From NCBI GenBank assembly GCA_018780265.1, contig JADMJV010000021.1:64001-86682 (forward strand): a stretch of DNA of 22,682 bases. The letters are read 5' to 3'. This document shows positions 686-21,896 of this stretch, piece after piece. The translations under genes and the position numbers were made by a program. The notes under the pieces were generated by a model. That model was not told the DNA's origin and ran no database searches. It saw only the letters and a list, made by a program, of their open reading frames with translations. Origin of the DNA: a bacterium (GTDB taxonomy: Bacteria; Vulcanimicrobiota; Xenobia; Xenobiales; JADMJV01). How positions within the stretch are numbered: position 1 is the first letter of the stretch; every line of letters starts with the position of its first letter.

Positions 686-715
686 AAGCAGACGAGCACG
701 CAGTCGCACGGGGGC

Positions 716-3867: not shown

Positions 3868-4830
3868 GTGCGCAAAATTGCCCTCAGGCTTGGACTTCTA
3901 TGCTGCGGATTGGTGGTAGGACTGGTTCTGGCCGAATTGGGCCTGCGCCTGGTCTTTCCCACCGACCTGACCAGTGGTGGCTTTCAGATGAATTTTGCGG
4001 CCGGCACCTTGAACAGTTTCGTGGCCGACGACGAATGCGGGTATTTGCCCAAGACCAACTCGGACGAATATAGCGAATTTGGCTGTCTGCACAACCCATA
4101 CAAACGGGAGAAATCTCCCGGCAAGAAGCGCGTCCTCTTCCTGGGCGACTCGGTTACCCATCGGGGTCGCCTGGTCCGGGCCTTGCAGTGTTGTTACGGG
4201 GACGAGCGCTACGAGTATTGGAATGCCGGTGTAGAAAGTTTTAATACTGCTCAGGAATTGGTGCTGTATCGTCGATTCAACGCCAAGATCAAGCCCGACC
4301 AGGTGATCCTGTCTTTCCATAACAACGATTTTATGCAAACTCCGCTGGTCTTTCATAAAGACGGCCGTCTGCAGATGCTCACCCCTCAGCGTGACCGCAA
4401 GCGCATCAACATGTGGTGGTTCGCCAATAGCTATTTTTATCGCTTTCTGATCGGCCTCTCCTGGCGGGGCGATAGCGAGCAAAAGGCCGTGGAGGTTCGC
4501 CAGACTCTGGCCGACATGCAGGCCCTGATGGCCGAGCAAGAGGTCGATTTTCGAGTCATTCTGCTGCCGCTCATGAAGCCCCTCAAAGACTGGGACGATG
4601 GCGAAAACTGGTCGCGCAAACAGAGCACCGCGATGTTCGAATCCCTCAAGATCCGCAGCTACGATCTGCTCCCGAGCCTGGAAGGCATGCTGGCCAAAGG
4701 CACCGCTGTCGAGGAAGAGGCGGGCGATGCCTGGCATCCCAACGATACGGCCGCGGCGGTCTTCGCTGCCGATCTGCAAAAACAGGGCCTACTTATTCTT
4801 GGTGACGAGAAACTTATCCAAAATCAGTAG
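3868..4830 (+). CDS. SGNH/GDSL-family hydrolase (esterase/acyltransferase-like) with an N-terminal membrane anchor.
   Basis: GTG start. N-terminal TM (IALRLGLLCCGLVVGLVLAELGL). Block I VLFLGDSVT (GDS motif with Ser nucleophile). Block V DAWHPND (DxxH). Confidence 0.65.
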   Translation: MRKIALRLGLLCCGLVVGLVLAELGLRLVFPTDLTSGGFQMNFAAGTLNSFVADDECGYLPKTNSDEYSEFGCLHNPYKREKSPGKKRVLFLGDSVTHRGRLVRALQCCYGDERYEYWNAGVESFNTAQELVLYRRFNAKIKPDQVILSFHNNDFMQTPLVFHKDGRLQMLTPQRDRKRINMWWFANSYFYRFLIGLSWRGDSEQKAVEVRQTLADMQALMAEQEVDFRVILLPLMKPLKDWDDGENWSRKQSTAMFESLKIRSYDLLPSLEGMLAKGTAVEEEAGDAWHPNDTAAAVFAADLQKQGLLILGDEKLIQNQ

Positions 4831-6573
4831 GTCCAGGTCGCTGACGCCAAAGGTGTAAAAGGCGTTTTCGGGACTGGTCACCAGCGGTTCACCGCGCAAG
4901 TTGAGGCTGGTATTCATCAACACGGGCGTGCCGGTGGCCTGGCCAAACTGATGGACGATTTCGTAGTAGAGGGGATTGGATTCGCGATCCACCGTCTGCA
5001 GGCGACCGGTGCCGTTGTGACATACGGCCGGAATTTCGGCGTGGCGCTCTTCGGGGATGGGACTGACCATCAGCATGAAACGCTGTGGGTATTGATTGGC
5101 GGCTTTGTCCAGGGTGAAATAGTCCTGCGCCCGCTCCTCGGTGACTACGGGAGCGAAAGGACGGAAAGCCTCGCGGAATTTGATCTTGGTGTTGACCACT
5201 TCTTGCATCTCAGCCTTACGTGGATCAGCCATGATGGAACGATTGCCCAGGGCTCGCGGCCCCCACTCAAAACGACCCTGGAACAGGGCGATCACCTGGC
5301 CCTTGAGCATGGCCGAAACGGCCCGCTCGGCGATTTTTTCCACTTCATCGACCTGCTCGTGGGGCAGTCCGGCCTTCTCGATGGCCGCCCTCTCTTCGGC
5401 CAGGCTGAACGACTGGCCGTAGTAAGCGTGCTTCATAATGAGCTTGCGCGGCTTCTTGAGCAGCACGTGATACACGTAGAGGGCTGCCCCCAGCGCTCCG
5501 CCCGCATCGCCGGCGTTGGGCTGAATGTAGACTTCGTCAAAGAGCGACTGGCGCATGACGCGACCGTTGGCCACGCTGTTGAGCGCGACACCGCCGGCCA
5601 TGACCAACTTCTTGAGGCCCGTCTTGACCTGCAGAGTATTGGCCATCTTCAAAATCGCTTCTTCGGTGAGCAACTGTAGAGAAGCGGCGACATCTGCGTA
5701 ATACTGGTTGCGACCGGCTGCCTCTTCACGACCCCGGATATCGTCGCCCGTCGACTCGGTGAAGAAGGGGCTTTCCGGCTCACGCGGAGGGCCGAAGAGG
5801 GCCACGAACTTGGAGTTGAAAGCGTCGGTCAGGCTCTCGTGAAAACTGAAGTAATCCATGTTGAGCGAGAAGCTGCCGTCTTCGTGAAGGCGGAAGATGC
5901 GCTCCAACTTCTCCATGTAACGCGGCTTACCGTAAGGCGCCATGCCCATGACTTTATACTCGCCGCTGTTGACCTTAAAGCCCAACCAGGCGGTGAAAAC
6001 CGAGTAGAGCAAACCCAAGGAGTGGGGAAAGCGAATTTCTTCGGTCAGTTCCAACTCGTTGCCGGCACCGGTCGTCCAGTCGCCCTTGGCGGTGCCCATG
6101 GCGGTGGTGGTCCATTCGCCCACGCCATCCAGGGTGAGTACAGCCATCTCCTCAAAGGGAGAGCAGAAGGCGGCACTGGCGGCATGACTGATGTGGTGGT
6201 CCACAAAAAGCAGCTTGTCGTGGGGAAAGTCAGGAAACTGCTTGAGGATATCGCCCTTGACCCAAAGCTTATTGCCAAACCAGGCCAGCATGGCTTCGCG
6301 AAAGTGGCGCCACGACCGGGGGAAGGTGTGCAGATGAGTGAGCAAAATGCGCTGAAATTTGGGCAGGGGCTTTTCGTAGAAGACGATGTAGTCCAGATCT
6401 TTTTGTTGAATGCCGCCTTCTTTCAGGCAATACTCCACCGAGGCGGTGGGGAAGCGATGATCGAATTTAATGCGTGAAAAGCGCTCCTCCTGGGCGGCTG
6501 CAACCAGTTCGCCGTCCATGAGCAGGGCGGCCGCCGAATCGTGATAATAAGCGGAAATTCCCAGGATATTCAT
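4789..6573 (-). CDS. NodU/CmcH-family O-carbamoyltransferase.
   Basis: The family-typical N-terminus MNILGISAYYHDSAAALL is at the internal Met; the ORF track extends to 6630, but the conserved N-terminus argues for 6573. Length is 594 aa with a typical two-domain layout (YrdC/Kae1-like). It overlaps the upstream small ORF in a TGATG stop/start arrangement. Confidence 0.9.
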   Translation of the reverse strand: MNILGISAYYHDSAAALLMDGELVAAAQEERFSRIKFDHRFPTASVEYCLKEGGIQQKDLDYIVFYEKPLPKFQRILLTHLHTFPRSWRHFREAMLAWFGNKLWVKGDILKQFPDFPHDKLLFVDHHISHAASAAFCSPFEEMAVLTLDGVGEWTTTAMGTAKGDWTTGAGNELELTEEIRFPHSLGLLYSVFTAWLGFKVNSGEYKVMGMAPYGKPRYMEKLERIFRLHEDGSFSLNMDYFSFHESLTDAFNSKFVALFGPPREPESPFFTESTGDDIRGREEAAGRNQYYADVAASLQLLTEEAILKMANTLQVKTGLKKLVMAGGVALNSVANGRVMRQSLFDEVYIQPNAGDAGGALGAALYVYHVLLKKPRKLIMKHAYYGQSFSLAEERAAIEKAGLPHEQVDEVEKIAERAVSAMLKGQVIALFQGRFEWGPRALGNRSIMADPRKAEMQEVVNTKIKFREAFRPFAPVVTEERAQDYFTLDKAANQYPQRFMLMVSPIPEERHAEIPAVCHNGTGRLQTVDRESNPLYYEIVHQFGQATGTPVLMNTSLNLRGEPLVTSPENAFYTFGVSDLDLLILDKFLVTKNK

Positions 6574-6788
6574 CAGCCTTGCCTTTGCGCTTCCGCCAGC
6601 GTGTGTTCGGCCTTGGGACGATGAATCCACGAAGAGACCTGTTTGTAGCCGTTCAGCCCCAGGGCATCGCCTTGCAAGCGGGCCAGCAGTGCAAAGATGG
6701 GCACCACAAACACGTAAAAGGCGGTGAGAATAAGCCGGGACTGAAATTCACCCACGGCCTGAAAAGATTCCTTGACGTAGCTCAACAT
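6573..6788 (-). CDS. Small (71 aa) single-TM protein translationally coupled to the carbamoyltransferase.
   Basis: ATG at 6788 is preceded by GAAGGA with a 5-nt spacer. There is a hydrophobic helix LILTAFYVFVVPIFALLA. Its stop codon shares one nucleotide with the carbamoyltransferase ATG (TGATG at 6571-6575 on the minus strand). Confidence 0.45.
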   Translation of the reverse strand: MLSYVKESFQAVGEFQSRLILTAFYVFVVPIFALLARLQGDALGLNGYKQVSSWIHRPKAEHTLAEAQRQG

Positions 6789-9114: not shown

Positions 9115-10023
9115 TTATGTGTGACTGAGACCCGACTCCAGGGTGCGAAAGTATTCCACCGTCGCCAGTTCGCGCAAGCAATAGGCCTGGTGCGAGGTCA
9201 GCGCAACCTCCGGGTTGGCGTCGGCGGGCAGTTGACTGCGCAGATAGCGCTCCCAGAAGCCGCCCAGATTGCACATTCGGGCTACCGCCAGGCGCGGGGG
9301 ATGCAGTCCGGTCGAAAATCGCGAGCGCAGGCGAGAGTGCTTTTCCACATAGATTCTGGCCGAGCGGGCCTTGGCCCGGGCCTGAGCTAAAGCTCCGGTA
9401 ATATTGGCCCGAGTAGGCGGCCTTTTGATGTGAAAGCCGATGGCCTTATAGTTGTTGTGCTTTTTAAGTCCAATGGCCATCAAGCGCAGGCCTAGCTCCT
9501 GATCCTCCCAGCCATACTCTTTAAAGTCCTCATCAAACAGGCCGGCTTCCTTGAGGTGCTGCAACTTGACCGAGACGTTGCTGGTCCAGAAGAAGGACGT
9601 AGAGATGTCAGCTGCGGTAAATTTCGGCGCCACCGGTCGCACAGGTTCGGAGATGTGATTGACCCAGCCGTTGCATACGCAGCGGTCAAACTGGTCGTGA
9701 ATGACCAGGTGCTCCTCAAGCAGACGAGGGTCGGCCAGCACGTCATCGTCGATATACAGCATCACCCGCCCACGAGCGGCACGAATCCCCGTATTGCGGG
9801 CGGCCGCCAGGGCCGAGTGGGGCTGCCACAAGTAAGTCAGGGGGTAGGGCAGCTCAGACCGAACCTCGCGCACCATATCGGCGGTGCCATCCTCGGAGCC
9901 ATCGTCCACCAGCACCACTTCAAAACGCTCGTGGCCAATCGTCTGGTCACACAGCGACAGCAGCACCGTTTTCAGAGTGGCCTGTCGGTTGCGGCTGCAA
10001 AGGCCCACCGTGATGTCGATCAT
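9115..10023 (-). CDS. Family-2 (GT-A fold) glycosyltransferase.
   Basis: MIDITVGLCSRNRQATLKTVLLSL...VVLVDDGSEDGT...RNTGIRAARG...YIDDD (DxD). Its start overlaps the stop of the upstream GT2 gene as ATGA (10020-10023). Confidence 0.8.
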   Translation of the reverse strand: MIDITVGLCSRNRQATLKTVLLSLCDQTIGHERFEVVLVDDGSEDGTADMVREVRSELPYPLTYLWQPHSALAAARNTGIRAARGRVMLYIDDDVLADPRLLEEHLVIHDQFDRCVCNGWVNHISEPVRPVAPKFTAADISTSFFWTSNVSVKLQHLKEAGLFDEDFKEYGWEDQELGLRLMAIGLKKHNNYKAIGFHIKRPPTRANITGALAQARAKARSARIYVEKHSRLRSRFSTGLHPPRLAVARMCNLGGFWERYLRSQLPADANPEVALTSHQAYCLRELATVEYFRTLESGLSHT

Positions 10024-10853
10024 GAGGAGAGTTCCTTCCAGCCCGCCTGCAGATAGGCCCGCTCCACTTCCAGCCAGCGGCGCACCAGGGCCGGCGCGGG
10101 CAGGCGAGAAAGGAGCGAATTCTTCCAGCGATTGGCAAAATGCAGGCCCGATCGCAACCACATGCGCAACGAAGGATAGCGGCGATATAGTTGGGCCGCG
10201 GCCTGCCCGTCCAGGGCGGCTACCCGCAGACGCTGCTGGTGATCGAGAGGCGGCTTCCAGTGATAGACATAAGTGTGCACGTCAAAAACTCGGGCTACTT
10301 TGAGCCGTTTCAGTCGAACGCCCAGTTCGGCGTCTTCCCAGCGGGCAAAGGATGGGTCGAAGAGACCGGATGTCATCAACAGCCGGCGTTCCAGGGAAGC
10401 ATTGCTGGTACACAGGTAGTTTTTGGAGAAATGCTTCCAGGGTTGACCCAGCGGCGGTAGGGGAGGGTAGAGCGGCTTGGGCACATTGACCACCGGGCCG
10501 CGCACCAGGCAGCCGGGATTGGCCGCCAAAAGGTGAGCGTGGCGCTGCAAAAAATCGGGCGGGATCAAGACGTCGTCGTCCATAAACAGAATGTGCCGAC
10601 CCCGGGCGGCTTCGATAGCCCGGTTACGAGCTCGACTGGTGCCTCCGTGGTCTTGTTGCAGGGCTCGTAGCGGCAACTGACTCTCAAATTCCCGCAAGAC
10701 TTCGGCGGTGTTGTCCTGGCTGCCATCGTCGACCACCAGGATTTCAAAATCGTCGAAGGGGTAATTTTGCAAAGTCAGATGCTGCAGCGTGAGACGCAAG
10801 GCCTGACTGCGATTGCGCGTGGGGATAACGAGGCTCAGGTTCACGGGCGCCAT
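10020..10853 (-). CDS. Family-2 (GT-A fold) glycosyltransferase.
   Basis: LSLVIPTRNRSQALRLTLQHL...ILVVDDGSQDNTAEVL...RNRAIEAARG...FMDDD. The ATG immediately follows the TAA of the upstream PPTase gene (TAAATG). Confidence 0.8.
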   Translation of the reverse strand: MAPVNLSLVIPTRNRSQALRLTLQHLTLQNYPFDDFEILVVDDGSQDNTAEVLREFESQLPLRALQQDHGGTSRARNRAIEAARGRHILFMDDDVLIPPDFLQRHAHLLAANPGCLVRGPVVNVPKPLYPPLPPLGQPWKHFSKNYLCTSNASLERRLLMTSGLFDPSFARWEDAELGVRLKRLKVARVFDVHTYVYHWKPPLDHQQRLRVAALDGQAAAQLYRRYPSLRMWLRSGLHFANRWKNSLLSRLPAPALVRRWLEVERAYLQAGWKELSS

Positions 10854-11552
10854 TTACGGACAGGCACGCCAGTGTCCTTCCGGTCCAAACAAATAGGCCC
10901 GAACCGGCTTCTGGGTAGGGCACACCAGGGCCACACTTACCTCGGGGAAGGGACAGTGGGGACGCGACAGATGCCAGGGTAGTGGCCTGCCTTGCAGGTC
11001 AAACAGTCCCCACCGATCGTCAAAATAGGTGAGGAACTGGTCCAGTGGATGGGTCAGGCCGTCACCCAGGGCTTTGATGTGGGCCTCCTTGGCTGTCCAC
11101 ACCTCGAAAAAGAAATGACGAGGGTTTTCGGACTTCTCTAACTGGAGGGCCTCCGCCGAGGCGAAAAACCTCTGTCCCAGCTTGAGAAACTCGACGCGCC
11201 GTCGCCGGTCTTCCAGGTCCAGTCCCAACTCGCCGTGGGCCGCAATGACCACCCCTGCATAGCCTTCAGAATGGCTTAAATTAAAGGTGCAACTGCCGTC
11301 TCCCAGATAGGGTTTTCCATGAGCAGCCTTGTCCCAGTGAAGATCCTCAGGAGGTCGATCCAGCCACTGGCTGACCAGACGCCGTAACAGGGCGCAGGCC
11401 ACCTGTTGACGGCGTCGGTGGTGGGGAAAAACCAGGCGCGCACAACGCTGCCGGTCGCTGTCGCTGAGCCAGGGGTCCAACTCGTCCTCGGTCCAGCCCG
11501 GATCGTCCAGTTCAAACCAGACCAGGCTGGTCTGCGAGTCAGCCTTCAACAA
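10854..11552 (-). CDS. Sfp/HetI-type 4'-phosphopantetheinyl transferase.
   Basis: FNLSHSEGYAGVV (motif 2) and WTAKEAHIKALG, the W/F-x-x-K-E-A-x-x-K PPTase motif 3. Length ~230 aa. Confidence 0.8.
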   Translation of the reverse strand: MLKADSQTSLVWFELDDPGWTEDELDPWLSDSDRQRCARLVFPHHRRRQQVACALLRRLVSQWLDRPPEDLHWDKAAHGKPYLGDGSCTFNLSHSEGYAGVVIAAHGELGLDLEDRRRRVEFLKLGQRFFASAEALQLEKSENPRHFFFEVWTAKEAHIKALGDGLTHPLDQFLTYFDDRWGLFDLQGRPLPWHLSRPHCPFPEVSVALVCPTQKPVRAYLFGPEGHWRACP

Positions 11553-12408
11553 CCAGTTGCAACGCCGTCTTGCCTACGTAGAGCAGGTCGAATGGACGGA
11601 TCTTAACCACCGAGGTGAGGGGCATTTCGGCGATCCACTCGGTGCCGTCGGTGCGCCTTTCCAGGGTGATGGCGGCGGCCACCGGGCGGGTGAACATGAC
11701 CTCGAAGGCTTTCTCCAGTTCACGCCATTTCCAGGCCATGCAGCGGTAGGGCAGAGCGTCCTCTTCGATCGTCAGGTCCTGATCCCACCAACTGGGGGTA
11801 TCGGGAAGAGGCTCGACACGGGTGCCGCCCAACTGAATCTGGAAACCTGTCATGGGCAGCCGCAGCCCCTGTTGGGCACCACCGAGTATCTCTATAAACA
11901 TGCTGGGCCGCGTCGACAGGGCAATTTTCCGTGAGGCCGACTTGGTATCGCCGCGAGACTCTCCCTCGCGTATGGGATTCCGATAGGCCAGGTCGTGGTT
12001 TACAACCGTGGTGCCGGTTCGGCGCGCTTCGTGAATCTGGCCGATGCGTTCGGGCGCCACACCCCCAAAGCGGAAATCAGCCTGCTGAATATCCAGCAGG
12101 CTGCTGCCTACCTTCACATGGTCTCCTATTTTCAACAGGGCTTCTTTGATGGGGAGACCGTTCACCTCGGTAGGATTGGTGTCTGATCGATGGGCCAGGC
12201 GATAGGCTTTGAGTTCGTCGTCCCAGGTCATGTCGGCGTGAATTCGGGAGATTTGGGGGTCGTTGAGGAGCACCCAGCCCGGCGCCCGATCTCCAGGGGT
12301 GCGGGCCCGCCCAATGGTCACTTCGGCGCTGTCCAGGGGGAACGTTCGACCCTTGTCGGGGCCTTGAGAAACCCGAACCTGCAGACCACAACTGAACATT
12401 AAAGCCAA
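11539..12408 (-). CDS. FHA-domain protein with an uncharacterised C-terminal domain.
   Basis: VTIGRARTPGDRAPGWVLLNDPQISRIHADMTWDDELKAYRLAHRSDTNPTEVNG is a canonical FHA (GR...SR.HA...NGT.VNG). TTG start at 12408 lies 5 nt after GGGAGGA. ATG at 12399 is the alternative. Confidence 0.8.
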   Translation of the reverse strand: MALMFSCGLQVRVSQGPDKGRTFPLDSAEVTIGRARTPGDRAPGWVLLNDPQISRIHADMTWDDELKAYRLAHRSDTNPTEVNGLPIKEALLKIGDHVKVGSSLLDIQQADFRFGGVAPERIGQIHEARRTGTTVVNHDLAYRNPIREGESRGDTKSASRKIALSTRPSMFIEILGGAQQGLRLPMTGFQIQLGGTRVEPLPDTPSWWDQDLTIEEDALPYRCMAWKWRELEKAFEVMFTRPVAAAITLERRTDGTEWIAEMPLTSVVKIRPFDLLYVGKTALQLVVEG

Positions 12409-12569
12409 AACAATCCTCCCTACGACGAACTCCCCGAAGGTTGGGGATTAGCCAAGGTTTTTGCCGAGACCTGCCGTCCCGGCCCAACCTTTTTGGGGAG
12501 TTTCTTTTCGTGGCCGCCAGTCGGGTGGATTCAAGGAAATGGCGGGCCTGTCTAAGAACATTTGCGGCC
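12409..12569. promoter_or_regulatory. Divergent intergenic region between the two FHA genes. It presumably carries both promoters. Contains a GGGAGGA Shine-Dalgarno for the minus-strand gene.
   Basis: 161-bp non-coding gap between opposed starts. GGGAGGA lies 5 nt upstream of the TTG at 12408 (minus strand). Confidence 0.3.
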
Positions 12570-13373
12570 ATGAGTGATGGGACCCGGGAATACAACTATC
12601 AAGATGTGGCCGACCGGTCCGCGCGCTATCCGGTGGTGGGAGCCCTCAATTTGCTGCTGGGCGAGAAGCCTGGCCGGCTGGTTCTGCTCGATGCGCAAAA
12701 TATCAAGATCGGTCGCGATGAAAGCTGCGACCTTCGCTTTGAAATCGATGGATTGAGTCGCAGCCACGCCTTGATCGAACGTCAGGCAGGGGGCGAGTAT
12801 GTGATTACCGACCTGCATTCCACCAACGGACTCTTCGTCAATGGCTACCAGGCCCATCAGCAGGCGTTGCACGACGGTGACCGCATCGCGCTGGGGCCCA
12901 ACCTGGTTTTCTGTTTCCGCGTTTTCCAGTTGGACGAAGCCATGGCCCTGGAAGGTCTGAGCGCAAGTAGTTCGCGTGACGTTGCCACCGGAGCCATCAC
13001 GGCCCCTTTCTTTGAGGAGATGTTGCAGTTCGAATTGGAGTTGGGTCAACGCCGCAATTTCGACGTGGCCCTCATCCATGTGCAGTGGGGCGCCTTTCAA
13101 CAGGGGCATGAAGAACGCCGGGTCCTGGATCTGTACGGCTATCTCGAATCGGTGAAGAAGCCCGGCTCCCTAACCGCACGACTGGGGGCACGCACCTTTG
13201 CCCAATCCATGAGCTACCTCTCCCGCTCTGAGGTAGACCGCCATACCGAGCAACTCTCCCGCCATCTGACCGAAAAGTTCAAGGACGCAACTTTTTTTGT
13301 GGGCTCTGCCTGCAGCCGCGAACTGGCCACTCCTAGCGCCACTAAACTGATTCAAAAAGCGTCTCAGCGCTGA
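12570..13373 (+). CDS. FHA domain fused to a degenerate (probably catalytically inactive) GGDEF-like domain.
   Basis: FHA: IKIGRDESCDLRFEIDGLSRSHALIERQAGGEYVITDLHSTNGLFVNG. GGDEF-like: DVATGAITAPFFEEMLQFELELGQRRNFDVALIHVQWGAF...LTARLGARTFAQ, where GARTF replaces GGDEF. Start chosen at the internal ATG 12570; the track's 12441 is a TTG. Confidence 0.75.
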   Translation: MSDGTREYNYQDVADRSARYPVVGALNLLLGEKPGRLVLLDAQNIKIGRDESCDLRFEIDGLSRSHALIERQAGGEYVITDLHSTNGLFVNGYQAHQQALHDGDRIALGPNLVFCFRVFQLDEAMALEGLSASSSRDVATGAITAPFFEEMLQFELELGQRRNFDVALIHVQWGAFQQGHEERRVLDLYGYLESVKKPGSLTARLGARTFAQSMSYLSRSEVDRHTEQLSRHLTEKFKDATFFVGSACSRELATPSATKLIQKASQR

Positions 13374-13374
13374 G

Positions 13375-14637
13375 ATGTGGCCCTTTGCCGAGCTCAAGGC
13401 GCTGGCCGGACAGGCCGGCAAGGTCGAGTTTCAGGCCGGAGAGATGCTTTTTCGTCAAGGCGATGCCGGCGACAAAGTCTTTCTTATCCGCCGCGGATTG
13501 GTAGAGATTTTTGCCGAAAATTCGGGCCGTCGCCGTCGCCTCAATTTGCGCGGCCGAGGCGAAGTTATCGGTGAGATGGCCCTGCTCGACGGCTTGGGAC
13601 GCTCGGCCAGCGCCGTTGCTCGAACTCAATTACAGGCCCGAACCCTGAGTCGTGACGTTTTTGAGCAACTTCTAACTCACAGACCTGCCCTGGTGCGCAG
13701 CCTGACCAGCCACCTCAGTCACCGCATGCGCGAATTGCAGGGCACTCTGAGCAGCGAACTGGACAAACGCGATCAGGAAGGCAAAGCCACCGGATTGTTC
13801 TCGATCGGTCCCTTTCTACTGGCCGAAAAATTGGGGGAGGGGGGGATGGGGGTGATTTACAGCGCCAGTCATCAGCGCACCGGGCACCCCTACGCCGTCA
13901 AAGTGCTGTCTGTCTCCAGCGAAGAGCAGAGAGCCCGATTTACTCGCGAGTGTGAATTTATGGCCCGCATGGTTCACCCCAACATCGTGCGCATCGATTC
14001 GGCCGGGACCGAAGGCTACTACGGTTACATGGCCATGGAGTTGCTGCGCGGTGAAACCTTGGAGCAGCGGCTCAAGCGTGGGCCCTTGAGCGAAGTCGAG
14101 GTGAGTCGCTGGTTTGTACCGGCCATGGAGGCTTTGGGCTACGCCCACGATATGGGGGTCATGCACCGCGACGTCAAGCCGGCCAATCTCTTTCTGACCC
14201 TGGATGGCACGCTCAAAATGCTCGATTTTGGGATCGCACGCCGCATCAACGGTCCCGAACTCACGGTGGCCGGCCGTTTTTTTGGCACCCCTCAATACCT
14301 TGCCCCGGAGCGCATCGGTGGTCAATCCAAAGCTCAAGAACGACAGTCTGACCAGTATTCCCTGGGCATTTCCATGTATGAGGCAGCGACCGGTCGCTGC
14401 CCCTTTGATTTCGACGATGTGGCCGAAGTGCTGGCCGCCCACCTGCATCGCTGTCCCACCCTGCCCAGTACTATCGCGGCCGTAGACCATGAGGTGGAGT
14501 TGGTCATCATGCGCCTGCTGGCCAAAGAGCCGTCCCGCCGCTATCCCAGCTTTGCAGCCGCCGCCCAGGCCCTGGCAGCGGCCACTTCGGGCAGCGTAAA
14601 ATCTATGACCACCGACTTTGGCACTCGCCGGGACTGA
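13375..14637 (+). CDS. Cyclic-nucleotide-binding domain fused to a Hanks-type Ser/Thr protein kinase.
   Basis: N-terminal cNMP-binding fold: FQAGEMLFRQGDAGDKVFLIRRGLVEIF...GRGEVIGEMALL...RSASAVA. Kinase: GEGGMGVIYSA (G-loop), AVKVL (Lys), HRDVKPANLFL, DFGIAR, GTPQYLAPE. The ATG is 1 nt after the upstream TGA. Confidence 0.9.
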   Translation: MWPFAELKALAGQAGKVEFQAGEMLFRQGDAGDKVFLIRRGLVEIFAENSGRRRRLNLRGRGEVIGEMALLDGLGRSASAVARTQLQARTLSRDVFEQLLTHRPALVRSLTSHLSHRMRELQGTLSSELDKRDQEGKATGLFSIGPFLLAEKLGEGGMGVIYSASHQRTGHPYAVKVLSVSSEEQRARFTRECEFMARMVHPNIVRIDSAGTEGYYGYMAMELLRGETLEQRLKRGPLSEVEVSRWFVPAMEALGYAHDMGVMHRDVKPANLFLTLDGTLKMLDFGIARRINGPELTVAGRFFGTPQYLAPERIGGQSKAQERQSDQYSLGISMYEAATGRCPFDFDDVAEVLAAHLHRCPTLPSTIAAVDHEVELVIMRLLAKEPSRRYPSFAAAAQALAAATSGSVKSMTTDFGTRRD

Positions 14638-14639
14638 CT

Positions 14640-16208
14640 TTACTTGCGGTGGTCCTTGAGAAATTGGCGCCAGCCCTCGGGTAGATGAGTGGCCGGTCGC
14701 CGATCAAAGGAGAGGGTGCCGTGGCCCATCATGGCCAGCACCGTTTGATTAAAAGCCTCGCCGGTGCGCTTGAGCTCGGGACAGGAGGCCGCCAGGCGCG
14801 GCTCACGCTGGAGTTGAGCCAGGAAGCTCCCCAGATCCACTACCGACTGAAAGTCATCAGCATCGGTCGTTTCGCTCTGATCCAGGCAGCGGCGCAGGGT
14901 TTCCTGGTGTCCCCCCTGGCTGAGACGGGTGAGACTGCGCCCCAGTCGGTCCAGGCTGGGCAACAACTGCTTTTGCAGCGCCTGCAGATCGACAGCCACC
15001 AGCGATTTGGCGGGCCGGCCCCGGGCGGCCGAACGCACCAGAGAGGTGCCAAATTCACGCGGGTTGGCAGGGAAGGAACTCTGACCAAACATCGACTCCA
15101 GGGGAAAACCAAAGCCTCGCACGGTGTGCTCGGAAACCACCGCCACCCGAGCCGATCCGGTCAACTTGCTGAGCGACTCCAGTTGCCCGCCGTTGCAAAC
15201 GTCGAGCACAATAGCCTCGGCCCCTTGCACGGTGCGGGCCAGGGCGTCAAAGGACAACCCGGCAGCACTTTGCTGCAGCCCGTGACCGGAGACGTAAACC
15301 ACATGGCGAGAGTTGGGCCATTGGCCGAGGTTTTTTTGCCACAGTTGCTCAAATTGAGACGCTCGGGGGCCATTTCCTACCACTTGATGGGACACATGCT
15401 TCCAGGTCGGGGCCACTTCGTCGTGCTGAGCCACCTTTTGTTTCAGCGCTTGCAGATGTTGGCCGGCGCTCTCGGCGCCGACCTTGGCCCCCAAGCCCCC
15501 TGCCAGCGTGAGCAGACCGCCCAAAACCAGGAGGGGTACGCTCAGAGGGCCTCCCTGCAAGGCCTGCACACAGGCGGTGCCGGCCACCACCAGGCCGGCT
15601 GCCCCCATCGCCCCCATGACCACTGGCAAAGCCGTATGCACGGCATCGCTGGCCACTCCTCCCGCCGCCGACAATCCGCTGACCTCAACCGGTGCCTGCG
15701 TCTTCTCGAGCATCTTTTCAAAGCGAGCGGGTTGGCCCTTGACGTGGCGAGCGATGTCGGGCACCGAGGCATCCCCGAAATAGGTGACCAACAGCGGTTG
15801 ATCGGAAGTCTGGAAAGTGTCCGAAGCGGCACTCCCCATGACCCCAAGCGACAGGGCAGGGTCGTTGATGGTGCCAAACTGCAGGCTCCCGCCGTCGCGC
15901 AGCGGCGTCCACTCATCGCTGGACGCTTTACGACCGTCGATCAGCGTGGTGCCGGTATGCAGGTCGCGCACCCAGAGCTGCCCCTCTTTCCACTGCCCCT
16001 CCGCCTGTTTGGGCTGCCCGGCCCAGCGCACCTGGCAATCAGGGTCCTGTCCAATGGTAAAGACCGAACCATCGGTAGGAAAACGCAGCGAGCCGCCATC
16101 TGGCGTCAGCAGACGCTGCCGCTCAGGCTGCAGGCTCAGCGAATGTCCGATGGACCTGGGCTGATTCCCCGGATTGGATTGCACACGCATAGACTCAGAG
16201 AATATCAC
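14640..16208 (-). CDS. FHA-domain membrane protein with a C-terminal caspase/metacaspase-like (clan CD, peptidase C14-like) domain.
   Basis: N-terminal FHA: SVFTIGQDPDCQVRWAG...LWVRDLHTGTTLIDGRK. There are two hydrophobic segments in the middle (PVVMGAMGAAGLVVAGTACVQAL; LLVLGGLLTLAGGLGA). The C-terminal blocks HVVYVSGHG and AIVLDVCNGG fit the metacaspase His (YSGHG) and Cys (D-x-C-x-x-G) dyad pattern. Confidence 0.7.
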   Translation of the reverse strand: MIFSESMRVQSNPGNQPRSIGHSLSLQPERQRLLTPDGGSLRFPTDGSVFTIGQDPDCQVRWAGQPKQAEGQWKEGQLWVRDLHTGTTLIDGRKASSDEWTPLRDGGSLQFGTINDPALSLGVMGSAASDTFQTSDQPLLVTYFGDASVPDIARHVKGQPARFEKMLEKTQAPVEVSGLSAAGGVASDAVHTALPVVMGAMGAAGLVVAGTACVQALQGGPLSVPLLVLGGLLTLAGGLGAKVGAESAGQHLQALKQKVAQHDEVAPTWKHVSHQVVGNGPRASQFEQLWQKNLGQWPNSRHVVYVSGHGLQQSAAGLSFDALARTVQGAEAIVLDVCNGGQLESLSKLTGSARVAVVSEHTVRGFGFPLESMFGQSSFPANPREFGTSLVRSAARGRPAKSLVAVDLQALQKQLLPSLDRLGRSLTRLSQGGHQETLRRCLDQSETTDADDFQSVVDLGSFLAQLQREPRLAASCPELKRTGEAFNQTVLAMMGHGTLSFDRRPATHLPEGWRQFLKDHRK

Positions 16209-16229
16209 GCCAGGCCCCGCCTTGCCAAA

Positions 16230-16793
16230 TCACGACGCAGTAGGAGTGCCCAGAGGCGCGAACAGGTCCTTTAGATCCAGGGTAAAGCCCCCATAACTCC
16301 AGCGATCCTCCTCGGCCAGGGCTGCTTCAAGCCGATAAGCCCCCCGGTCCAAGCGCAGATGCTCCAGCGTGCGCTCCTCGGGATCGACCAGCACATACTC
16401 CGCTACCCCACTCGCGGCATAGCGATTGAGCTTGCGAACCCGGTCGTGGGAGGCATTCGAGGGCGAGAGAACCTCTACCAACATCTGCGGGATGCCTTCA
16501 ATAAAGTTAGTCTTCACCATGCCAAACTGTTCCGGCAGCAGAAAGATTAAATCGGGCTGCACCGGGCTACAGCCGGGCATCAACAGGTCCATCGGGGCAT
16601 CGAAGACGGCCCCCAGGCCTCTCTGCTCCAGTTGATAAAGAAAAAATTGCAGTCGTCGTGACACAATCTGATGAACGGTTCGGGGACTGGGAGACATGAA
16701 GAGTTCTCCGTCGATAACTTCGTAGCGCCTGCCATCCTCGGGCAGGCCTAGATAATCCTCATAGGTCCAACGTCGGGGCTGAGAGAGGGTCAT
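16230..16793 (-). CDS. Uma2-family (DUF820) putative PD-(D/E)xK endonuclease.
   Basis: MTLSQPRRWTYEDYLGLPEDGRRYEVIDGELFMSPSP...VQPDLIFL...PQMLVEVLSPSN...YAASGVAEYVLVDP is a classic Uma2 layout. Start taken at the internal ATG 16793. Confidence 0.8.
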   Translation of the reverse strand: MTLSQPRRWTYEDYLGLPEDGRRYEVIDGELFMSPSPRTVHQIVSRRLQFFLYQLEQRGLGAVFDAPMDLLMPGCSPVQPDLIFLLPEQFGMVKTNFIEGIPQMLVEVLSPSNASHDRVRKLNRYAASGVAEYVLVDPEERTLEHLRLDRGAYRLEAALAEEDRWSYGGFTLDLKDLFAPLGTPTAS

Positions 16794-16891
16794 AGACCTC
16801 CATTTCACCACGCCTGTGCCATAGCCTGCTCGACTGGCATTGCAATCTGCCGCCAGGTAGGAATGCAGCTGGACTTGAGGTATCTTCAAAT
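16794..16891. promoter_or_regulatory. Divergent intergenic region between the Uma2 endonuclease and the DUF1998 helicase.
   Basis: 98-bp gap between opposed start codons. No convincing -35/-10 could be assigned by eye. Confidence 0.25.
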
Positions 16892-19354
16892 ATGAGCATA
16901 ACAACGGTCCTCGAGGAACTGCTGGCGATCGAAGGCAGACGCGACACGCTGACGCGCATTGAGAGATTTCCAGCCAGACCCGCCCGGTGGGGGCCGTGGC
17001 CCGGCGTGATCCGGGACGAACTCAAGCAAGCCCTGCGGGCCAAGGGGATCGAGCGTCTTTATTCGCACCAGAGCCAGGCCGTCGAAGCGGGCGTGGCCGG
17101 CCGCGATCTGGTGATTGTCACTCCCACGGCTTCGGGCAAGACCCTATGTTACAACCTGCCCGTGGTCCAGTCGGTGCTGCAAGAGGCCAGCAGCCGCGCC
17201 CTGTACCTTTTCCCCACCAAGGCTCTGGCTCAGGATCAGATGGCCGAATTGCACGACCTGTGCAAGCGGCTGGAAACGTCTGTACAACTCAATCTGGGGG
17301 CCTTCACCTACGACGGCGATACCCCCGCCGACGCGCGCAGGGCCGTACGTTCCAAAGCCCACGTGGTGATCACCAATCCGGACATGCTACACACCGGTGT
17401 ACTGCCCCATCACACCAAGTGGAGCCGCTTTTTTGGCAATCTGCGCTACGTGGTGGTGGACGAACTGCACACCTATCGGGGCGTTTTTGGCAGCCACCTG
17501 GCCAATGTCTTTCGCCGCCTCCAACGGATCTGTCAGTTTCATGGATCCAATCCCACCTTTATCTGCTGCAGCGCCACCATTGCCAATCCCAAGCAGTTGG
17601 CCGAGAGCCTGTTGGAGCGTGAGGTTGAGTTGGTAGGGGAGAGCGGCGCCCCTCAGGGCGAGAAGACCTTTCTCTTCTACAATCCCCCCATGCTGAACAA
17701 AGAACTGGGAATTCGCCGTTCTTACGTCAGTTCGGCCCGACGTCTGGCCGGAAAATTCATCGAGAAAGGGCACAAAACCATTCTTTTCACCGGTTCCCGC
17801 CTCAACGTGGAGGTGCTGACCCGGTATCTCAAAGACAAGTTTGAGCGTACTGAGGCCGAAGAGGGTCGCATTCGCGGCTATCGCGGCGGCTATCTGCCCG
17901 GCCTGCGTCGCGAGATCGAAAGCGGCCTGCGCCAGGGCACAGTGCTGGCCGTGGTCAGCACCAGCGCTCTCGAGCTGGGCATCGACGTGGGCAGCCTGGA
18001 TGTGGCCATCCTGGCCGGCTACCCGGGATCGGTGGCCAGCACCTGGCAGCAGGCCGGTCGGGCCGGTCGGCGTCAATCGGCCTCGGTGGTGGTCATGGTG
18101 GCCCGTAGCGATCCGTTGGACCAGTTTTTGATGCAGCATCCCGAGTATTTCTTTGAGAGCAGCCCCGAACACGCTCGCATCAATCCCGATAATCCGGCGA
18201 TTTTGTTGAGCCACGTGAAGTGCGCCGCTTTCGAACTGCCCCTGGAGAAAGGCGAAAAACTGGGCCGGGCCACCATCGACGAAATCGTGGCTTATCTGGT
18301 GGAGAAACAGGTGCTCCACGAATCGGGCGACCAGGTTCACTGGGCTCAGGAAGTCTATCCCGCCGACAACATTAGCCTGCGCAGCAGCGGTCCCGAGAAC
18401 TTCGTGATTATGGACATGGACCAGAACAACCGCGTCATCGCCGAGGTGGACTGGAATTCGGCCCGCTCCACGGTATATGAAGATGCCATCTATATGTGCG
18501 AGGCCAGAACTTACAACGTCAAACGCCTGGACTACGCCCAGCGACGCGCCTACGTGCGCGCCGTCGAGGTGGACTATTACACCGACGCCATCACCTCCAC
18601 GGCCGTCAAAGTGCTGGACAGTTTTCAACGCCAGTCGGTGCCGGCCGAAGAGCGGGTGGTCTACGAGCACGGCGAGGTGCACGTCAGTTGGCGCGTTTCG
18701 GGCTTTAAGAAGATCAAGTTCTACAGCCGCGAGAACGTAGGATTCGGCCAGGTCCACCTGCCCGATCACGAGATGCACACCACCTCGTTCTGGCTCACCT
18801 TGCGCGAAGAGTTTTTTAAGGACCTGCAACTCAATCGGGCCGACAGCCTGGAGGGAGTGTTGGGCCTGGCCCACTGTCTCCATCATCTGGCTCCCCTCTA
18901 CCTGATGTGCGACGCCAAAGATCTGGACCATTGCGTGGGCGAGCGTTCCGGGCGCTGGTTTGTGCGTCCCGAGGCATCCACTCAGGGGCGTTATGAGTTT
19001 GCCCTGGCTGCCGGCGATGACTCCGATAGCCAGGGTGAAAACTGGCTGCGCATCGGGGCCAACGAACCTGAGAAGCTGGAAGACTTGCCCACCGAGGTGT
19101 TGGGCCGCTTTGATCCCACCCTCTACCTTTATGACAATATCCCCGGCGGCATGGGACTGGCCTCTCAGCTTTTCGATCTCTTTCCCACATTGCTGGCCCA
19201 AACGTGTCAAATGCTGGAAACTTGCCCCTGCGATGAGGGCTGTCCCAGTTGCGTGGGCCCCCCGCACGAAGTAGGCGGACGGGCCCGAGCGGTGGCCCTT
19301 CAGATCGCCCGTGCCCTTCAAGAATTTGAAGCCGTGTCAGCCAGGCCTTCTTGA
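16892..19354 (+). CDS. DEAD/DEAH-box (DExH) helicase with C-terminal DUF1998 four-cysteine domain (MrfA/YprA-like).
   Basis: Motif I TPTASGKT, motif II VVDELH, motif III CCSATIANP, motif VI QQAGRAGRR. The C-terminal DUF1998-type cluster is ...HCVGE...TCPCDEGCPSCVGPP. Length is 820 aa. Confidence 0.9.
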   Translation: MSITTVLEELLAIEGRRDTLTRIERFPARPARWGPWPGVIRDELKQALRAKGIERLYSHQSQAVEAGVAGRDLVIVTPTASGKTLCYNLPVVQSVLQEASSRALYLFPTKALAQDQMAELHDLCKRLETSVQLNLGAFTYDGDTPADARRAVRSKAHVVITNPDMLHTGVLPHHTKWSRFFGNLRYVVVDELHTYRGVFGSHLANVFRRLQRICQFHGSNPTFICCSATIANPKQLAESLLEREVELVGESGAPQGEKTFLFYNPPMLNKELGIRRSYVSSARRLAGKFIEKGHKTILFTGSRLNVEVLTRYLKDKFERTEAEEGRIRGYRGGYLPGLRREIESGLRQGTVLAVVSTSALELGIDVGSLDVAILAGYPGSVASTWQQAGRAGRRQSASVVVMVARSDPLDQFLMQHPEYFFESSPEHARINPDNPAILLSHVKCAAFELPLEKGEKLGRATIDEIVAYLVEKQVLHESGDQVHWAQEVYPADNISLRSSGPENFVIMDMDQNNRVIAEVDWNSARSTVYEDAIYMCEARTYNVKRLDYAQRRAYVRAVEVDYYTDAITSTAVKVLDSFQRQSVPAEERVVYEHGEVHVSWRVSGFKKIKFYSRENVGFGQVHLPDHEMHTTSFWLTLREEFFKDLQLNRADSLEGVLGLAHCLHHLAPLYLMCDAKDLDHCVGERSGRWFVRPEASTQGRYEFALAAGDDSDSQGENWLRIGANEPEKLEDLPTEVLGRFDPTLYLYDNIPGGMGLASQLFDLFPTLLAQTCQMLETCPCDEGCPSCVGPPHEVGGRARAVALQIARALQEFEAVSARPS

Positions 19355-19438: not shown

Positions 19439-20015
19439 TCACCAGCACATTGCCCACCACCCAAGCAGAGCTCCCAGGGCCGCACCCGCCAAGATTTGGC
19501 GGAACCAATGCTCCAGTTGGGGGAGGCCCTGGTCACCAATTTTTCCGGAGGAAACGGCATCTTTGATGGGACCGATTACGGGAGCGTAAATCTGCTGAGC
19601 CAATCGCGTCACAAGAAAAACGAAATTATAGATTGACAGCGCCGTCGCCACCCTCCCGGTCAACACTGCGGATACTCGGCTCGAAATGGCACTGGAAGCC
19701 AACAGTGATACAACAGCATTGAGCGCCACTACCGCCCAAAGAGCTTGCACAAGAGAGTGTCCGTGTTGAGCCAGTGACTGGGTGGCACTGCGAATGATCC
19801 GCCAGTGCGCACAATCCCCCAACCGTCCAAATGGCGGTGGCGGCGACATTGGTCAGCAGGAAGGCCGCTGGCACGCCTTCCAGGCAAAACAATTTGATAC
19901 CCAGACTCCCCGGTGGTCTCAGCGAGCGCAGCAAAGTGCGCCACCCTTGCGGAGTCAACAGGCGGAGCAAAACTCTGAGCATCGATTGGCGGTGAGTATC
20001 TCCTTGGATATCCAT
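19439..20015 (-). pseudogene. Possible frameshifted and truncated N-terminal membrane-domain remnant of an ABC exporter. Low confidence.
   Basis: Two overlapping minus-strand ORFs lie in different frames (19626..20015 and 19439..19849). Concatenated, they read like the start of a type-I ABC exporter TMD: MLRVLLRLLTPQGWRTLL...LFCLEGVPAAFLLTNVAATAIW // LWAVVALNAVVSLLASS...GRVATALSIYNFVFLVTRLAQQ...ILAGAALGALLGWWAM. No ATPase domain follows. Confidence 0.25.
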
Positions 20016-20117
20016 CGACGTCGCCCTTTTTCCCCGTCCAGATGGTCCCCTGGTTCGGTCTCAGCAGGGGCCGCTGCGAGTGGCGCGAAAGCGGATCAGG
20101 TGTTACGTCACCTTCCA

Positions 20118-20501
20118 ATGCTCCTGAGAGTTTATCAATCCGTCAAAATACGCCACTTGCGTTGGGCTGCCGGGCTATTGGTGCTGTCTGTCTGCGGCTG
20201 CGGCGCTGGCATAGGAGCCATGACCTATGGCTGGCACGGCGCGCTGCTAGCCCCCTTGGGCCTGCTGGTCACGATGGCCCTGGCTTTACACCTCTTCATT
20301 GTCATCTCACTGGCCCTGGGAATGCGAAGCTATCGTAACAAGCAGCCCCGAGCCGCCCTCTTGTTCTTGTGGGTTGCGGCTGTTTTTCGCAGCTACGACC
20401 GGAGTGGCAAGGCCAACTCGGCCCTGGTGGAGTCACGCAACCTGGTGACTGCGCAAATGATGCAGAAGATGGCTATGAGCTTCCTGTCCCAGCCTCGCTA
20501 G
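20118..20501 (+). CDS. Small hypothetical membrane protein (127 aa, three predicted helices).
   Basis: Internal ATG 20118 of ORF 19782..20501. Hydrophobic segments WAAGLLVLSVCGCGAGIGAM, ALLAPLGLLVTMALALHLFIVISLALG and ALLFLWVAAVF. The 5' part of the long ORF (MALRMIRQCAQSPNRPNGGGG...) is not protein-like. Confidence 0.3.
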   Translation: MLLRVYQSVKIRHLRWAAGLLVLSVCGCGAGIGAMTYGWHGALLAPLGLLVTMALALHLFIVISLALGMRSYRNKQPRAALLFLWVAAVFRSYDRSGKANSALVESRNLVTAQMMQKMAMSFLSQPR

Positions 20502-20807: not shown

Positions 20808-21896
20808 GTGCAGGGCCATTATGACAGCAGCGGCCGGATCAGCCTGGATCTCGAATCGGCCGCGCGACGTATCGCCGGCAACCAGACGGTCAATCCCAGC
20901 GAGGCAGTGGCCAGTCTATTGGCCGGCCTGCTGGCATGGAACCCCACCAGCCTGCACCTCAACACTTGGGATGGCCTGGCTGTGGGAGCCACAGGGCTGC
21001 ACCGTCGTCCTGATATGCTGGAGTTGATCAGCGCTCGATTCTTGTCTAACACCGTCGATTGGGTCGCCGATCACCTCTGTCTCGGTCTCCACTCCTTGCT
21101 CCAAGGGGTCCGGTCAGCCGCCTTTCACTGCACAAACCCGGCTCACTCTCTGGGCCTTCGCCACCCCATAGAGGCCCAATGGCCCATGGCTCCACGCTGG
21201 CCTCGACATCTGCCCCCGGCCCCAAATCTAGACGCCCACTGGAGGCTGTTCCCGGCTCCCCCCCTCGACCTTGCTTGCCTGCGACGCCGCTTTCTTAAAT
21301 GTCACGTACCGCTGTTCATCAACGGTCAGCCCCTGCTCCAACACGCCCTGCAACCATCCACCCTGGAATACCTGTGGGAAAGTCACGATCTTCACCTACC
21401 CTCTCCCGACCAGGGGTTTGCGGCCGCCTCCCTTGGCTATGCGGGCGTGGAACTGGGTCAGGATCTGGGCCAGCCATTGCTCCTGAAAAAGAAGCACACC
21501 CTGATATTGGGACGCGACTTCGACGGCCCGGCGTGCAAAACTCCGCCCCTCTACCAACTCGAAAGACCCGAATCGATTTCCCTGTTTCGCTCAGGAACCG
21601 GTCACTGGGCATCCGTTCCTCGGTGCAGCTCGTGCGCCGCCCTGCAACTGAGAACCCGGCATGCCACACGGGTATTCGCCGTCGTCCATGGATTCACACT
21701 CGACCCCCTGGAGCTACCCGACTGGGAGCCTGGTTGGCGCGTCTGGGTGCCGTCCCCCGCCCACTACCTCTCGCCCGACCTACGATCCCTGATCCAGCCC
21801 AAAATCATTATGAAAAGAGCGGCGGAATCGCTGTCTCGTGCAAAAAAGCGCCTCCAGCCCCACCAGGCCAACCTGCTCAACTCTCTGCCGCGCTAG
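20808..21896 (+). CDS. Hypothetical protein (362 aa) with a Pro-rich central segment. No recognisable domain.
   Basis: Long ORF with coding-like third-position GC bias. GTG start. The alternative overlapping frames (21299..21916 +, 21319..21669 -) are Pro/Arg/Gly-rich and junk-like. The start site is uncertain. Confidence 0.4.
   Translation: MQGHYDSSGRISLDLESAARRIAGNQTVNPSEAVASLLAGLLAWNPTSLHLNTWDGLAVGATGLHRRPDMLELISARFLSNTVDWVADHLCLGLHSLLQGVRSAAFHCTNPAHSLGLRHPIEAQWPMAPRWPRHLPPAPNLDAHWRLFPAPPLDLACLRRRFLKCHVPLFINGQPLLQHALQPSTLEYLWESHDLHLPSPDQGFAAASLGYAGVELGQDLGQPLLLKKKHTLILGRDFDGPACKTPPLYQLERPESISLFRSGTGHWASVPRCSSCAALQLRTRHATRVFAVVHGFTLDPLELPDWEPGWRVWVPSPAHYLSPDLRSLIQPKIIMKRAAESLSRAKKRLQPHQANLLNSLPR

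Follow-up and report, generated by a model that had tools for sequence, protein, structure and literature searches.

A cyclic-nucleotide-binding Hanks kinase with its FHA partner and an FHA-associated C11 peptidase: probably two separately inherited modules that are neighbours in one lineage of Xenobia

In the fhaA-fhaB-pstP-pknA-pknB cluster of Mycobacterium and the ppkA-fha1 cluster of type VI secretion systems, a Hanks-type Ser/Thr kinase (STK) is encoded together with more than one FHA docking partner or substrate; these clusters are co-directional, include a phosphatase, and have defined outputs (cell division, assembly of the secretion system). Of the GarA/OdhI proteins of Actinobacteria, partners of PknG and PknB, GarA has no second domain besides its FHA domain and regulates enzymes of the tricarboxylic acid cycle. 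The diguanylate cyclase DgcB of Bdellovibrio bacteriovorus (Bd0742; PDB 6HBZ/6HC0) is built of a tail, an FHA domain and a GGDEF domain; its tail, phosphorylated on T14, is bound by its own FHA domain and controls the GGDEF domain (PMC6733907). Here we describe a stretch of 22,682 nt, referred to as the window, from a bacterium of the order Xenobiales (assembly GCA_018780265.1, contig JADMJV010000021.1, positions 64,001 to 86,682). Within it, 4.7 kb hold the genes for a Hanks kinase with an N-terminal cyclic-nucleotide-binding (CNB) domain, hereafter the cNMP-kinase, and for three proteins of FHA fold, FHA-1, FHA-2 and FHA-3. In contrast to the Mycobacterium and type VI secretion clusters, the stretch described here has no phosphatase, and its genes are split among three transcription units, with a dead GGDEF domain and a C11 protease as outputs.

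A preliminary description of the window had proposed a single dedicated relay, from second messenger to phosphorylation to three readers with different outputs. Open reading frames (ORFs) were confirmed at the positions given for all four genes (Table 1), as was a cyclic-nucleotide-binding Hanks kinase flanked by FHA-fold proteins; the relay itself was not borne out, because in relatives the genes occur as two independently conserved pairs, in one genome on different contigs. We conclude that the four genes probably represent two separately inherited Xenobia modules, FHA-2 with the cNMP-kinase (module A) and FHA-1 with FHA-3 (module B), that are neighbours only in this lineage, and we propose a mechanism for each.

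The FHA-2 gene was followed directly by a cNMP-kinase gene in all seven loci with an FHA-2 orthologue, the two reading frames either overlapping or lying no more than 12 nt apart, and with FHA-2 identities down to 49%. These loci are the window (with L001, a fragment identical to it), L007, L022, L023, L024, L026 and L027, where L numbers are our handles for loci. No FHA-1 or FHA-3 was within reach in five of the seven; in L022, L023 and L024 the pair lay amid unrelated genes (M20 and M64 peptidases, dehydrogenases), with no FHA-1 or FHA-3 within 8-10 kb. Proteins recovered from metagenomes with the FHA-2 profile were chiefly generic FHA proteins; only two were true orthologues. FHA-1 and FHA-3 were neighbours in about eight loci, and in six of these (L002, L003, L011, L010, L019, L020) neither FHA-2 nor the kinase was present. 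The synteny of the six was otherwise that of the window (carbamoyltransferase ... ACT-GT2-GT2-PPTase-FHA-1, then FHA-3, then an MrfA-type helicase; PPTase, phosphopantetheinyl-transferase), and flanking proteins were 76-89% identical. FHA-3 points the same way as FHA-1 in L010, L019 and L020 and the opposite way in L002, L003 and L011. Genome GCA_018266105.1 carried FHA-1 and FHA-3 on JAFEBA010000010 (L020) and FHA-2 and the kinase on JAFEBA010000068 (L024). All four genes were found together only in the window (with L001) and on the Xenobiales contig of L007; at least 10 further loci showed the pairs apart. Identities between L007 and the window were 90% for FHA-1, 78% for FHA-2, 76% for the kinase and 67% for FHA-3; L007 has no Uma2 gene and carries an additional 359-aa ORF between FHA-1 and FHA-2. 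Since all four genes are retained in a related genome, the neighbourhood is conserved beyond the window; this conservation is shallow.

The four genes alternate in strand and fall into three transcription units and not into a single operon. The first, on the minus strand, runs from FHA-1 through PPTase, two GT2 genes and an ACT-domain gene; the second, on the plus strand, comprises FHA-2 and the kinase; the third, on the minus strand, comprises FHA-3, preceded in this window by the Uma2 gene. A single nucleotide separates the FHA-2 stop from the kinase start (TGA G ATG); this gap and the tight coupling read from it in the preliminary description agree with the adjacency of the pair in all seven loci. 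The kinase and FHA-3 genes are convergent, their stop codons 2 nt apart. FHA-1 runs 14 nt into the start of the PPTase gene and therefore heads the PPTase/GT2/GT2/ACT string. The promoters of FHA-1 and FHA-2 presumably both lie in the divergent region between them, although a promoter scan found no sigma-70-like consensus there; across the scan, promoter-like sites numbered 3 against 1.2 expected, none of them between FHA-1 and FHA-2, and terminator-like sites were at background level.

The simplest history is as follows: module A entered once, in an ancestor shared by the window and L007, where it would have been inserted antisense between the module B genes FHA-3 and FHA-1.

Table 1. Positions of the four genes and of the domains and motifs assigned within them (window coordinates; res, residues)
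Feature	Coordinates	Strand	Description or basis
FHA-1	11539..12408	-	289 aa, soluble, tandem-FHA
FHA-1 C-terminal degenerate FHA-like domain, res 169-288	11545..11904	-	hhalign
FHA-1 N-terminal canonical FHA, res 12-110	12079..12375	-	Pfam FHA, alignment, motif positions
FHA-1/FHA-2 divergent intergenic region	12409..12569	.	161 nt
FHA-2	12570..13373	+	267 aa, tail-FHA-linker-pseudoGGDEF, DgcB-like architecture
FHA-2 N-terminal tail	12570..12629	+	Alignment of 19 sequences
FHA-2 canonical FHA	12651..12920	+	Pfam and pThr residues
FHA-2 catalytically dead GGDEF-fold domain	12972..13370	+	Family profile
cNMP-binding Hanks Ser/Thr kinase	13375..14637	+	420 aa, soluble
Kinase cyclic-nucleotide-binding domain	13375..13734	+	Pfam and family alignment
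Kinase catalytic domain	13804..14601	+	Pfam and family alignment
Kinase C-terminal tail motif T412-x-x-[FYLI]	14608..14619	+	Family alignment; Thr invariant
FHA-3	14640..16208	-	522 aa, predicted pseudo-FHA and C11 clan-CD peptidase with inserted transmembrane hairpin
FHA-3 C11 peptidase body, res 270-522	14643..15401	-	Catalytic residues, fold
FHA-3 membrane hairpin, helices res 189-217 and 216-245	15474..15644	-	Kyte-Doolittle, AlphaFold2
FHA-3 C11 additional strands and helix, res 139-181	15666..15794	-	Belongs to peptidase fold
FHA-3 N-terminal FHA-fold domain	15840..16127	-	hhalign register

Pfam searches of the four proteins recovered FHA in FHA-1 and FHA-2 and both domains of the kinase; they did not recover FHA in FHA-3, nor GGDEF or C14. 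In the kinase, cNMP_binding (PF00027) was matched at 7.7e-21 (74.3 bits against a cutoff of 27.5) and Pkinase at 1.9e-51 (175 bits). The phosphate-binding cassette of the CNB domain was intact (G62-E63 ... G66-E67-M-A-L71 ... R76-S-A78) and invariant in nine family members, as were the Hanks motifs: GxGGxG 154-159, K176, E192, HRD 264-266, N271, DFG 284-286, T297 and APE 310-312. The protein has no hydrophobic segment and is thus soluble. We infer that cyclic nucleotide gates the kinase in cis, and the motif around T412, in its C-terminal tail, makes this Thr a candidate for autophosphorylation and for docking of an FHA domain. Among the best 150 representatives in a kinase search, the match was full-length in just four clusters and confined to the kinase domain in the others. 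A distant cNMP-kinase (P0089 in L025, 44% identity; P numbers are our handles for proteins) had no FHA-2-like C-terminus in its upstream flank, where the contig ends 160 nt upstream. The fusion of a CNB domain with an intact cassette to the N-terminus of a Ser/Thr kinase resembles eukaryotic PKG-type kinases; the protein described here differs in having a single CNB domain and no recognisable leucine-zipper or autoinhibitory pseudosubstrate region. A survey of Planctomycetota names cyclic-nucleotide-binding among STK-associated domains (PMC11032199), and our literature searches did not find a biochemically characterised bacterial CNB-STK fusion.

Full-length homologues of FHA-2 measured 265-276 aa (exactly 267 aa in 12 of 18) and all began M-x-[DE]-x-T-x-E, which identifies ATG 12570 as the genuine start. 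In the tail, M1, T5, E7, [FY]8 and S17 were invariant, and residues 1-17 were disordered in the AlphaFold2 model (predicted local distance difference test, pLDDT, <50). By analogy with pT14 of DgcB, the T-x-E-aromatic motif is a candidate phospho-acceptor and FHA ligand. The FHA domain itself was matched at 3.1e-18 (66.4 bits against a cutoff of 20.7) and has kept its residues for binding phosphothreonine (pThr): R49, S63-R64-x-H66, S84-T85-N86 and N91. The C-terminal half had no Pfam match, including to PF00990, while seven of the ten top matches of the family profile were GGDEF structures; the domain has the GGDEF fold. The degenerate GGDEF domain seen earlier therefore stands, and its active-site motif is lost: G206-A-R-T-F210 aligns on GGEEF (family consensus G-P-R-x-F / G[AP]RxF), the DxD position holds non-acidic residues so that the metal-binding Asp is gone, and at the I-site, five residues upstream of the GGDEF position, K197-P-G-S200 aligns on R-P-L-D of 8wcn. 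With these three replaced, FHA-2 would be unable to make cyclic di-GMP (c-di-GMP) and would probably not bind it at the I-site. The suggestion that FHA-2 binds c-di-GMP was accordingly rejected, the I-site (KPGS for RxxD) and active-site (G[AP]RxF for GG[DE]EF) positions being non-canonical in 19 of 19 family members. An R162-N-F-D165 sequence (13053..13064), with R162 invariant and D165 present in at least 90% of sequences, lies at the alpha1/beta1 junction, which is not the canonical I-site position.

FHA-2 shares the layout of DgcB: an invariant Thr (T5) in a disordered tail, a canonical FHA domain and a GGDEF fold. It differs in that its GGDEF domain is dead (GARTF for GGEEF, no metal-binding Asp, KPGS for RxxD), and whereas the kinase of DgcB has not been identified, a kinase gene with a cyclic-nucleotide sensor is joined to FHA-2 by operon structure in every one of the seven loci. 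From GarA it differs in its second domain and in its tail (T-x-E-[FY] against ETTS), and the kinase genes of the GarA system are not cNMP-gated. Module A can be likened to both systems, with the addition of a built-in cyclic-nucleotide input and a non-catalytic output domain. The tails carrying T5 and T412 are plausible FHA ligands by motif, each offering pThr and a hydrophobic residue at +3, and the invariance of both Thr leads us to propose a chain from cyclic nucleotide through the kinase and pT5 or pT412 to the FHA domain and the dead GGDEF domain. The proposed order of events is as follows: cyclic nucleotide would bind the N-terminal CNB domain and control the soluble, catalytically intact kinase, translationally coupled to FHA-2. 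The kinase would then phosphorylate T-x-x-hydrophobic motifs, namely its own T412 and T5 of FHA-2. Next, the canonical FHA domain of FHA-2 would read pThr, either as a tail switch of the DgcB/GarA type or by docking on the kinase. Finally, the oligomeric or partner-binding state of the dead GGDEF-fold domain may shift.

FHA-1 was matched by the Pfam families FHA (2.7e-8; 34.6 bits against a cutoff of 20.7) and Yop-YscD_cpl (2.6e-11), and its N-terminal domain has kept all pThr-binding residues: G33-R34, S54-R55-x-H57, S75-x-T-N78 and N83-G84. Its C-terminus, described earlier as a domain of unknown type, is by homology probably a second, degenerate FHA-like domain. In hhalign comparisons it matched the protein's own N-terminal FHA with 96.9% probability (E 1.6e-10) and the FHA of FHA-2 with 7%, that is, undetected; it has GG in place of GR and YRCM in place of SRxH. 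The match points to an internal duplication in place of the novel domain that had been considered. In the linker between the two domains, a conserved Thr and then a basic stretch (from 11938..11949, residues 154-157, onward) give the consensus T-K-K-A-x-R-K-I-A-L-S-T-R-P in all long-linker homologues, FHA-1 itself reading T155-K-S-A-S-R-K-I-A-L-S-T-R-P; both are missing from the short-linker paralogues P0065-P0069. As pure speculation, the linker might be a phospho-site and/or a site for an Arg/Lys protease.

FHA-3 had been described as an FHA-transmembrane-metacaspase-like protein. Its FHA fold, membrane segment and caspase fold were upheld; its assignment to the metacaspases was not, the protein matching C11 (clostripain-like) peptidases. 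Its homologues start MRVQ or MRIQ, so that Met7 (ATG at 16190) is probably the true start. The N-terminus has the FHA beta-sandwich fold, with no Pfam FHA match at E up to 1 and no match to GGDEF or C14; in the hhalign register its pThr-binding residues are substituted (Arg by Q54, Ser by Q65, His by Q68 and Asn by G86). Because these residues are lost, two competent readers are left at the locus and not the three first counted. The AlphaFold2 model (pLDDT 86.4; predicted template modelling score, pTM, 0.83) has helices at 185-217 and 224-260, in the region of the two Kyte-Doolittle maxima (1.99 and 1.87 in 19-residue windows, against at most 1.2 in the other three proteins). With the hairpin inserted within the peptidase fold, both soluble domains of FHA-3 are predicted to be cytoplasmic.

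The match of FHA-3 to Peptidase_C11 (PF03415) was sub-threshold (E 0.0066; 16.5 bits against a gathering cutoff of 25.8), and a homologue, P0008, has a precomputed match to the same family. The C11 fold was recovered with its His-Gly/Cys dyad and an Asp two residues before the Cys; S-G-H309-G and D336-x-C338-N-G were invariant in 26 family members. A C14 caspase or metacaspase was considered and rejected, C14 not being the closest family. In PmC11 the dyad is His133/Cys179, and Asp177 determines the S1 preference for Arg/Lys (PMC4850288); H309, C338 and D336 of FHA-3 correspond to these. With the dyad and the S1 Asp intact, we predict Arg/Lys specificity. Taken together, sequence and model indicate that FHA-3 is a pseudo-FHA joined to a membrane-hairpin-anchored, cytoplasmic C11 (clostripain-type) peptidase. 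Described C11 enzymes (clostripain, PmC11, and thetapain and iotapain of B. thetaiotaomicron) are secreted and without FHA domains, whereas FHA-3 has no signal peptide, carries a pseudo-FHA at its N-terminus and has a membrane hairpin of two helices inserted in the fold. The spacer between its His and Cys is 29 residues long, against 46 in PmC11; this shortening removes the region of the autoprocessing site Lys147 of PmC11, and a processing loop may be absent. A full-text literature search for FHA and clostripain together returned nothing relevant.

A sub-family of FHA-3 homologues (P0007, P0019-P0024; L004, L009, L012-L018) carries a second, canonical FHA (GR, SRxH, STxG) after the first. Their genes stand alone, with no FHA-1, FHA-2 or kinase nearby, and the first FHA of P0007 retains GR and SREH, suggesting that the ancestral first FHA was probably functional. 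FHA-3 was 46-50% identical to its syntenic counterparts (L002, L010, L019, L020), against 74-89% for the flanking FHA-1, MrfA and carbamoyltransferase; either its evolution has far outpaced theirs or a paralogue has taken its place.

Homologues of C11 type with a single pseudo-FHA mostly adjoined FHA-1, and those with two FHA domains did not have FHA-1 nearby. From this distribution, FHA-1 may provide the pThr reader in trans. Module B would then consist of an anchored cysteine peptidase whose own FHA is unable to bind pThr and of a competent reader, FHA-1, that is probably an adaptor or regulator of the protease.

The general design of a Hanks kinase with an FHA partner is already known. What is solid here is the pair of FHA-pseudoGGDEF and cNMP-kinase, a new variation on the kinase-FHA tail-switch theme; the membrane-anchored FHA-C11 protease family is the more unusual object. 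Three elements here are uncharacterised: a bacterial kinase with a CNB domain predicted to gate it in cis; an FHA-pseudoGGDEF partner genetically tied to that kinase, with the tail-Thr layout of Bdellovibrio DgcB; and lineage-restricted, cytoplasmic, hairpin-anchored C11 proteases fused to a decayed FHA. Module A, if it operates as proposed, would offer a clean two-protein system for a phospho-tail/FHA switch with a defined input. The host phylum (Eremiobacterota, class Xenobia) is a soil lineage without cultured members whose experimental biology is almost nil, and these proposals are thus leads rather than results.

Several points weigh against our reconstruction. All loci belong to one class of one phylum and their flanking genes are 76-90% identical, so FHA-1 and FHA-3 may have stayed adjacent through shared descent and not through selection for their linkage; the PPTase, GT2, GT2 and ACT genes, physically coupled to FHA-1, could be its true functional context. 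Two single-FHA C11 proteins, P0002 (L008) and P0005 (L005), had no FHA-1 in the available, limited flank. For module A, the FHA-2 tail is undocked in the AlphaFold2 model, and T5 and T412 were predicted as phospho-sites solely from conservation and motif resemblance.

Perhaps the most serious alternative, which we regard as a real possibility short of probable, is that module A landed between FHA-1 and FHA-3 without functional effect. FHA-1 and FHA-3 would then be controlled by other kinases, for instance the Pkinase-AAA16-TPR protein encoded beside MrfA in relatives, and FHA-1 may chiefly regulate the PPTase/glycosyltransferase operon that it heads, whose start it overlaps by those 14 nt. The independent distribution of the modules in all other genomes fits such a history, as does a locus prone to rearrangement: FHA-3 is inverted between the two groups of relatives, Uma2 is found in the window only and the 359-aa ORF in L007 only. 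Nevertheless, if insertion sites are random, one that falls precisely between two genes of FHA fold is unlikely from the outset, the arrangement has outlasted substantial divergence between the window and L007, and it has brought FHA-1 and FHA-2 under a common divergent promoter region.

That the two pairs are linked in function is possible, if somewhat improbable. One such link is the relay of the preliminary description, selected as one unit, in which cyclic nucleotide acts through the kinase on three FHA readers with three outputs (the protease, a GGDEF scaffold and the domain of unknown type). Four genes united in two lineages at 67-90% protein identity, junctions that are tight and conserved (gaps of 1 nt and 2 nt) and a background of FHA genes near zero across some 119 kb of flanking Xenobia sequence with annotation would all be expected of such a unit. 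So, too, would the kinases found near single-FHA C11 genes: the cNMP-kinase in the window and L007, and the Pkinase-AAA16-TPR gene, which is directly convergent (3-nt gap) in L008 and lies 2.5 kb from the FHA-3 homologue in L002, L010 and L020. These genomes are closely related, however, and the proximity could be inherited synteny. We consider the relay unlikely: the pairs are apart in five of the seven module A loci and in six module B loci, even on separate contigs of one genome; the FHA of FHA-3 has lost its pThr-binding residues; transcription is split into three units that alternate in strand; and the cassette is not fixed, with an ORF added in L007 and Uma2 in the window. More doubtful still is a specific chain in which pThr made by the cNMP-gated kinase is read by FHA-1, which recruits or unlocks the C11 protease, whose own decayed FHA would serve as a regulatory pseudo-domain, in parallel with a DgcB-like switch on the dead-GGDEF scaffold. 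If true, bacteria would have a caspase-fold protease licensed by a kinase, and an FHA-GGDEF tail switch would for the first time have a kinase assigned to it; control of the protease by a kinase would add a new type of regulated proteolysis inside bacterial cells.

A role in anti-phage defence or abortive infection was also considered: the kinase would trigger the caspase-fold protease to kill the cell, assisted by the neighbouring Uma2 nuclease and helicase. Such a system is very improbable, since the PADLOC matches that suggest it (the kinase domain to PD-T4-6 and mad6, Uma2 to candidate PDC-S03) are limited to generic kinase, helicase and Uma2 domains with none for FHA-1, FHA-2 or FHA-3, and since the chromosome is syntenic and vertically inherited with housekeeping-type flanks 76-90% identical, no mobile-element or tRNA landmarks were found in the window, and Uma2 is missing from every related locus.

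The two-module reading is favoured over these alternatives. The phylogenetic setting is narrow. Among 5.8 billion, homologue clusters numbered 31 for FHA-1, 19 for FHA-2 and 25 for FHA-3; all named homologues of the three belong to Vulcanimicrobiota/Eremiobacterota, class Xenobia, the 25 clusters of the FHA-3 protease family included. The exact kinase sequence was found once, on a 3.2-kb metagenome contig. G+C content was about 60% across the window and its composition was unbroken at the four-gene stretch.

Among the neighbouring genes, the Pkinase-AAA_16-TPR (STAND-like) kinase of relatives (L008:2397-5867, minus strand; L002:13951-17541, minus strand) is convergent with MrfA in SCN-62-11-like genomes; the window has no such gene after MrfA. 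The 359-aa ORF of L007 (L007:7386-8465, minus strand) had weak, sub-threshold metallopeptidase matches (DUF6782, 1.2e-3; ATLF, 2.7e-3). The Uma2-family (PD-(D/E)xK-like) gene of the window (16230..16904, minus strand) lies between FHA-3 and the MrfA-type helicase; its absence from L007 and every other syntenic locus marks it as an insertion specific to this lineage. As annotated, it begins at a TTG, with a 13-nt overlap with the start of the helicase gene; since the Pfam match begins at residue 49, Met38 is probably the true start. An Rfam search of the window returned no RNA family, and the ORFs at 911..3847, 32..892, 19782..20501 and 20808..21896 (all plus strand), one of them 978 aa long, matched no Pfam family with an E cutoff of 0.01. 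A 529-aa ORF (14685..16274, plus strand) lies antisense to the whole of FHA-3; homologues back the minus-strand reading, so it is a shadow ORF of high-GC DNA and no gene. The conserved string headed by FHA-1, of envelope or secondary-metabolite type, comprises the PPTase, the GT2 proteins, the ACT-domain protein, the carbamoyltransferase (4789..6630) and a GDSL-like ORF. Its GT2 ORFs, as listed (9115..10161 and 10020..10853, both minus strand), overlap by 142 nt; the L002 homologue of the downstream one is 298 aa long, which makes an internal Met start probable.

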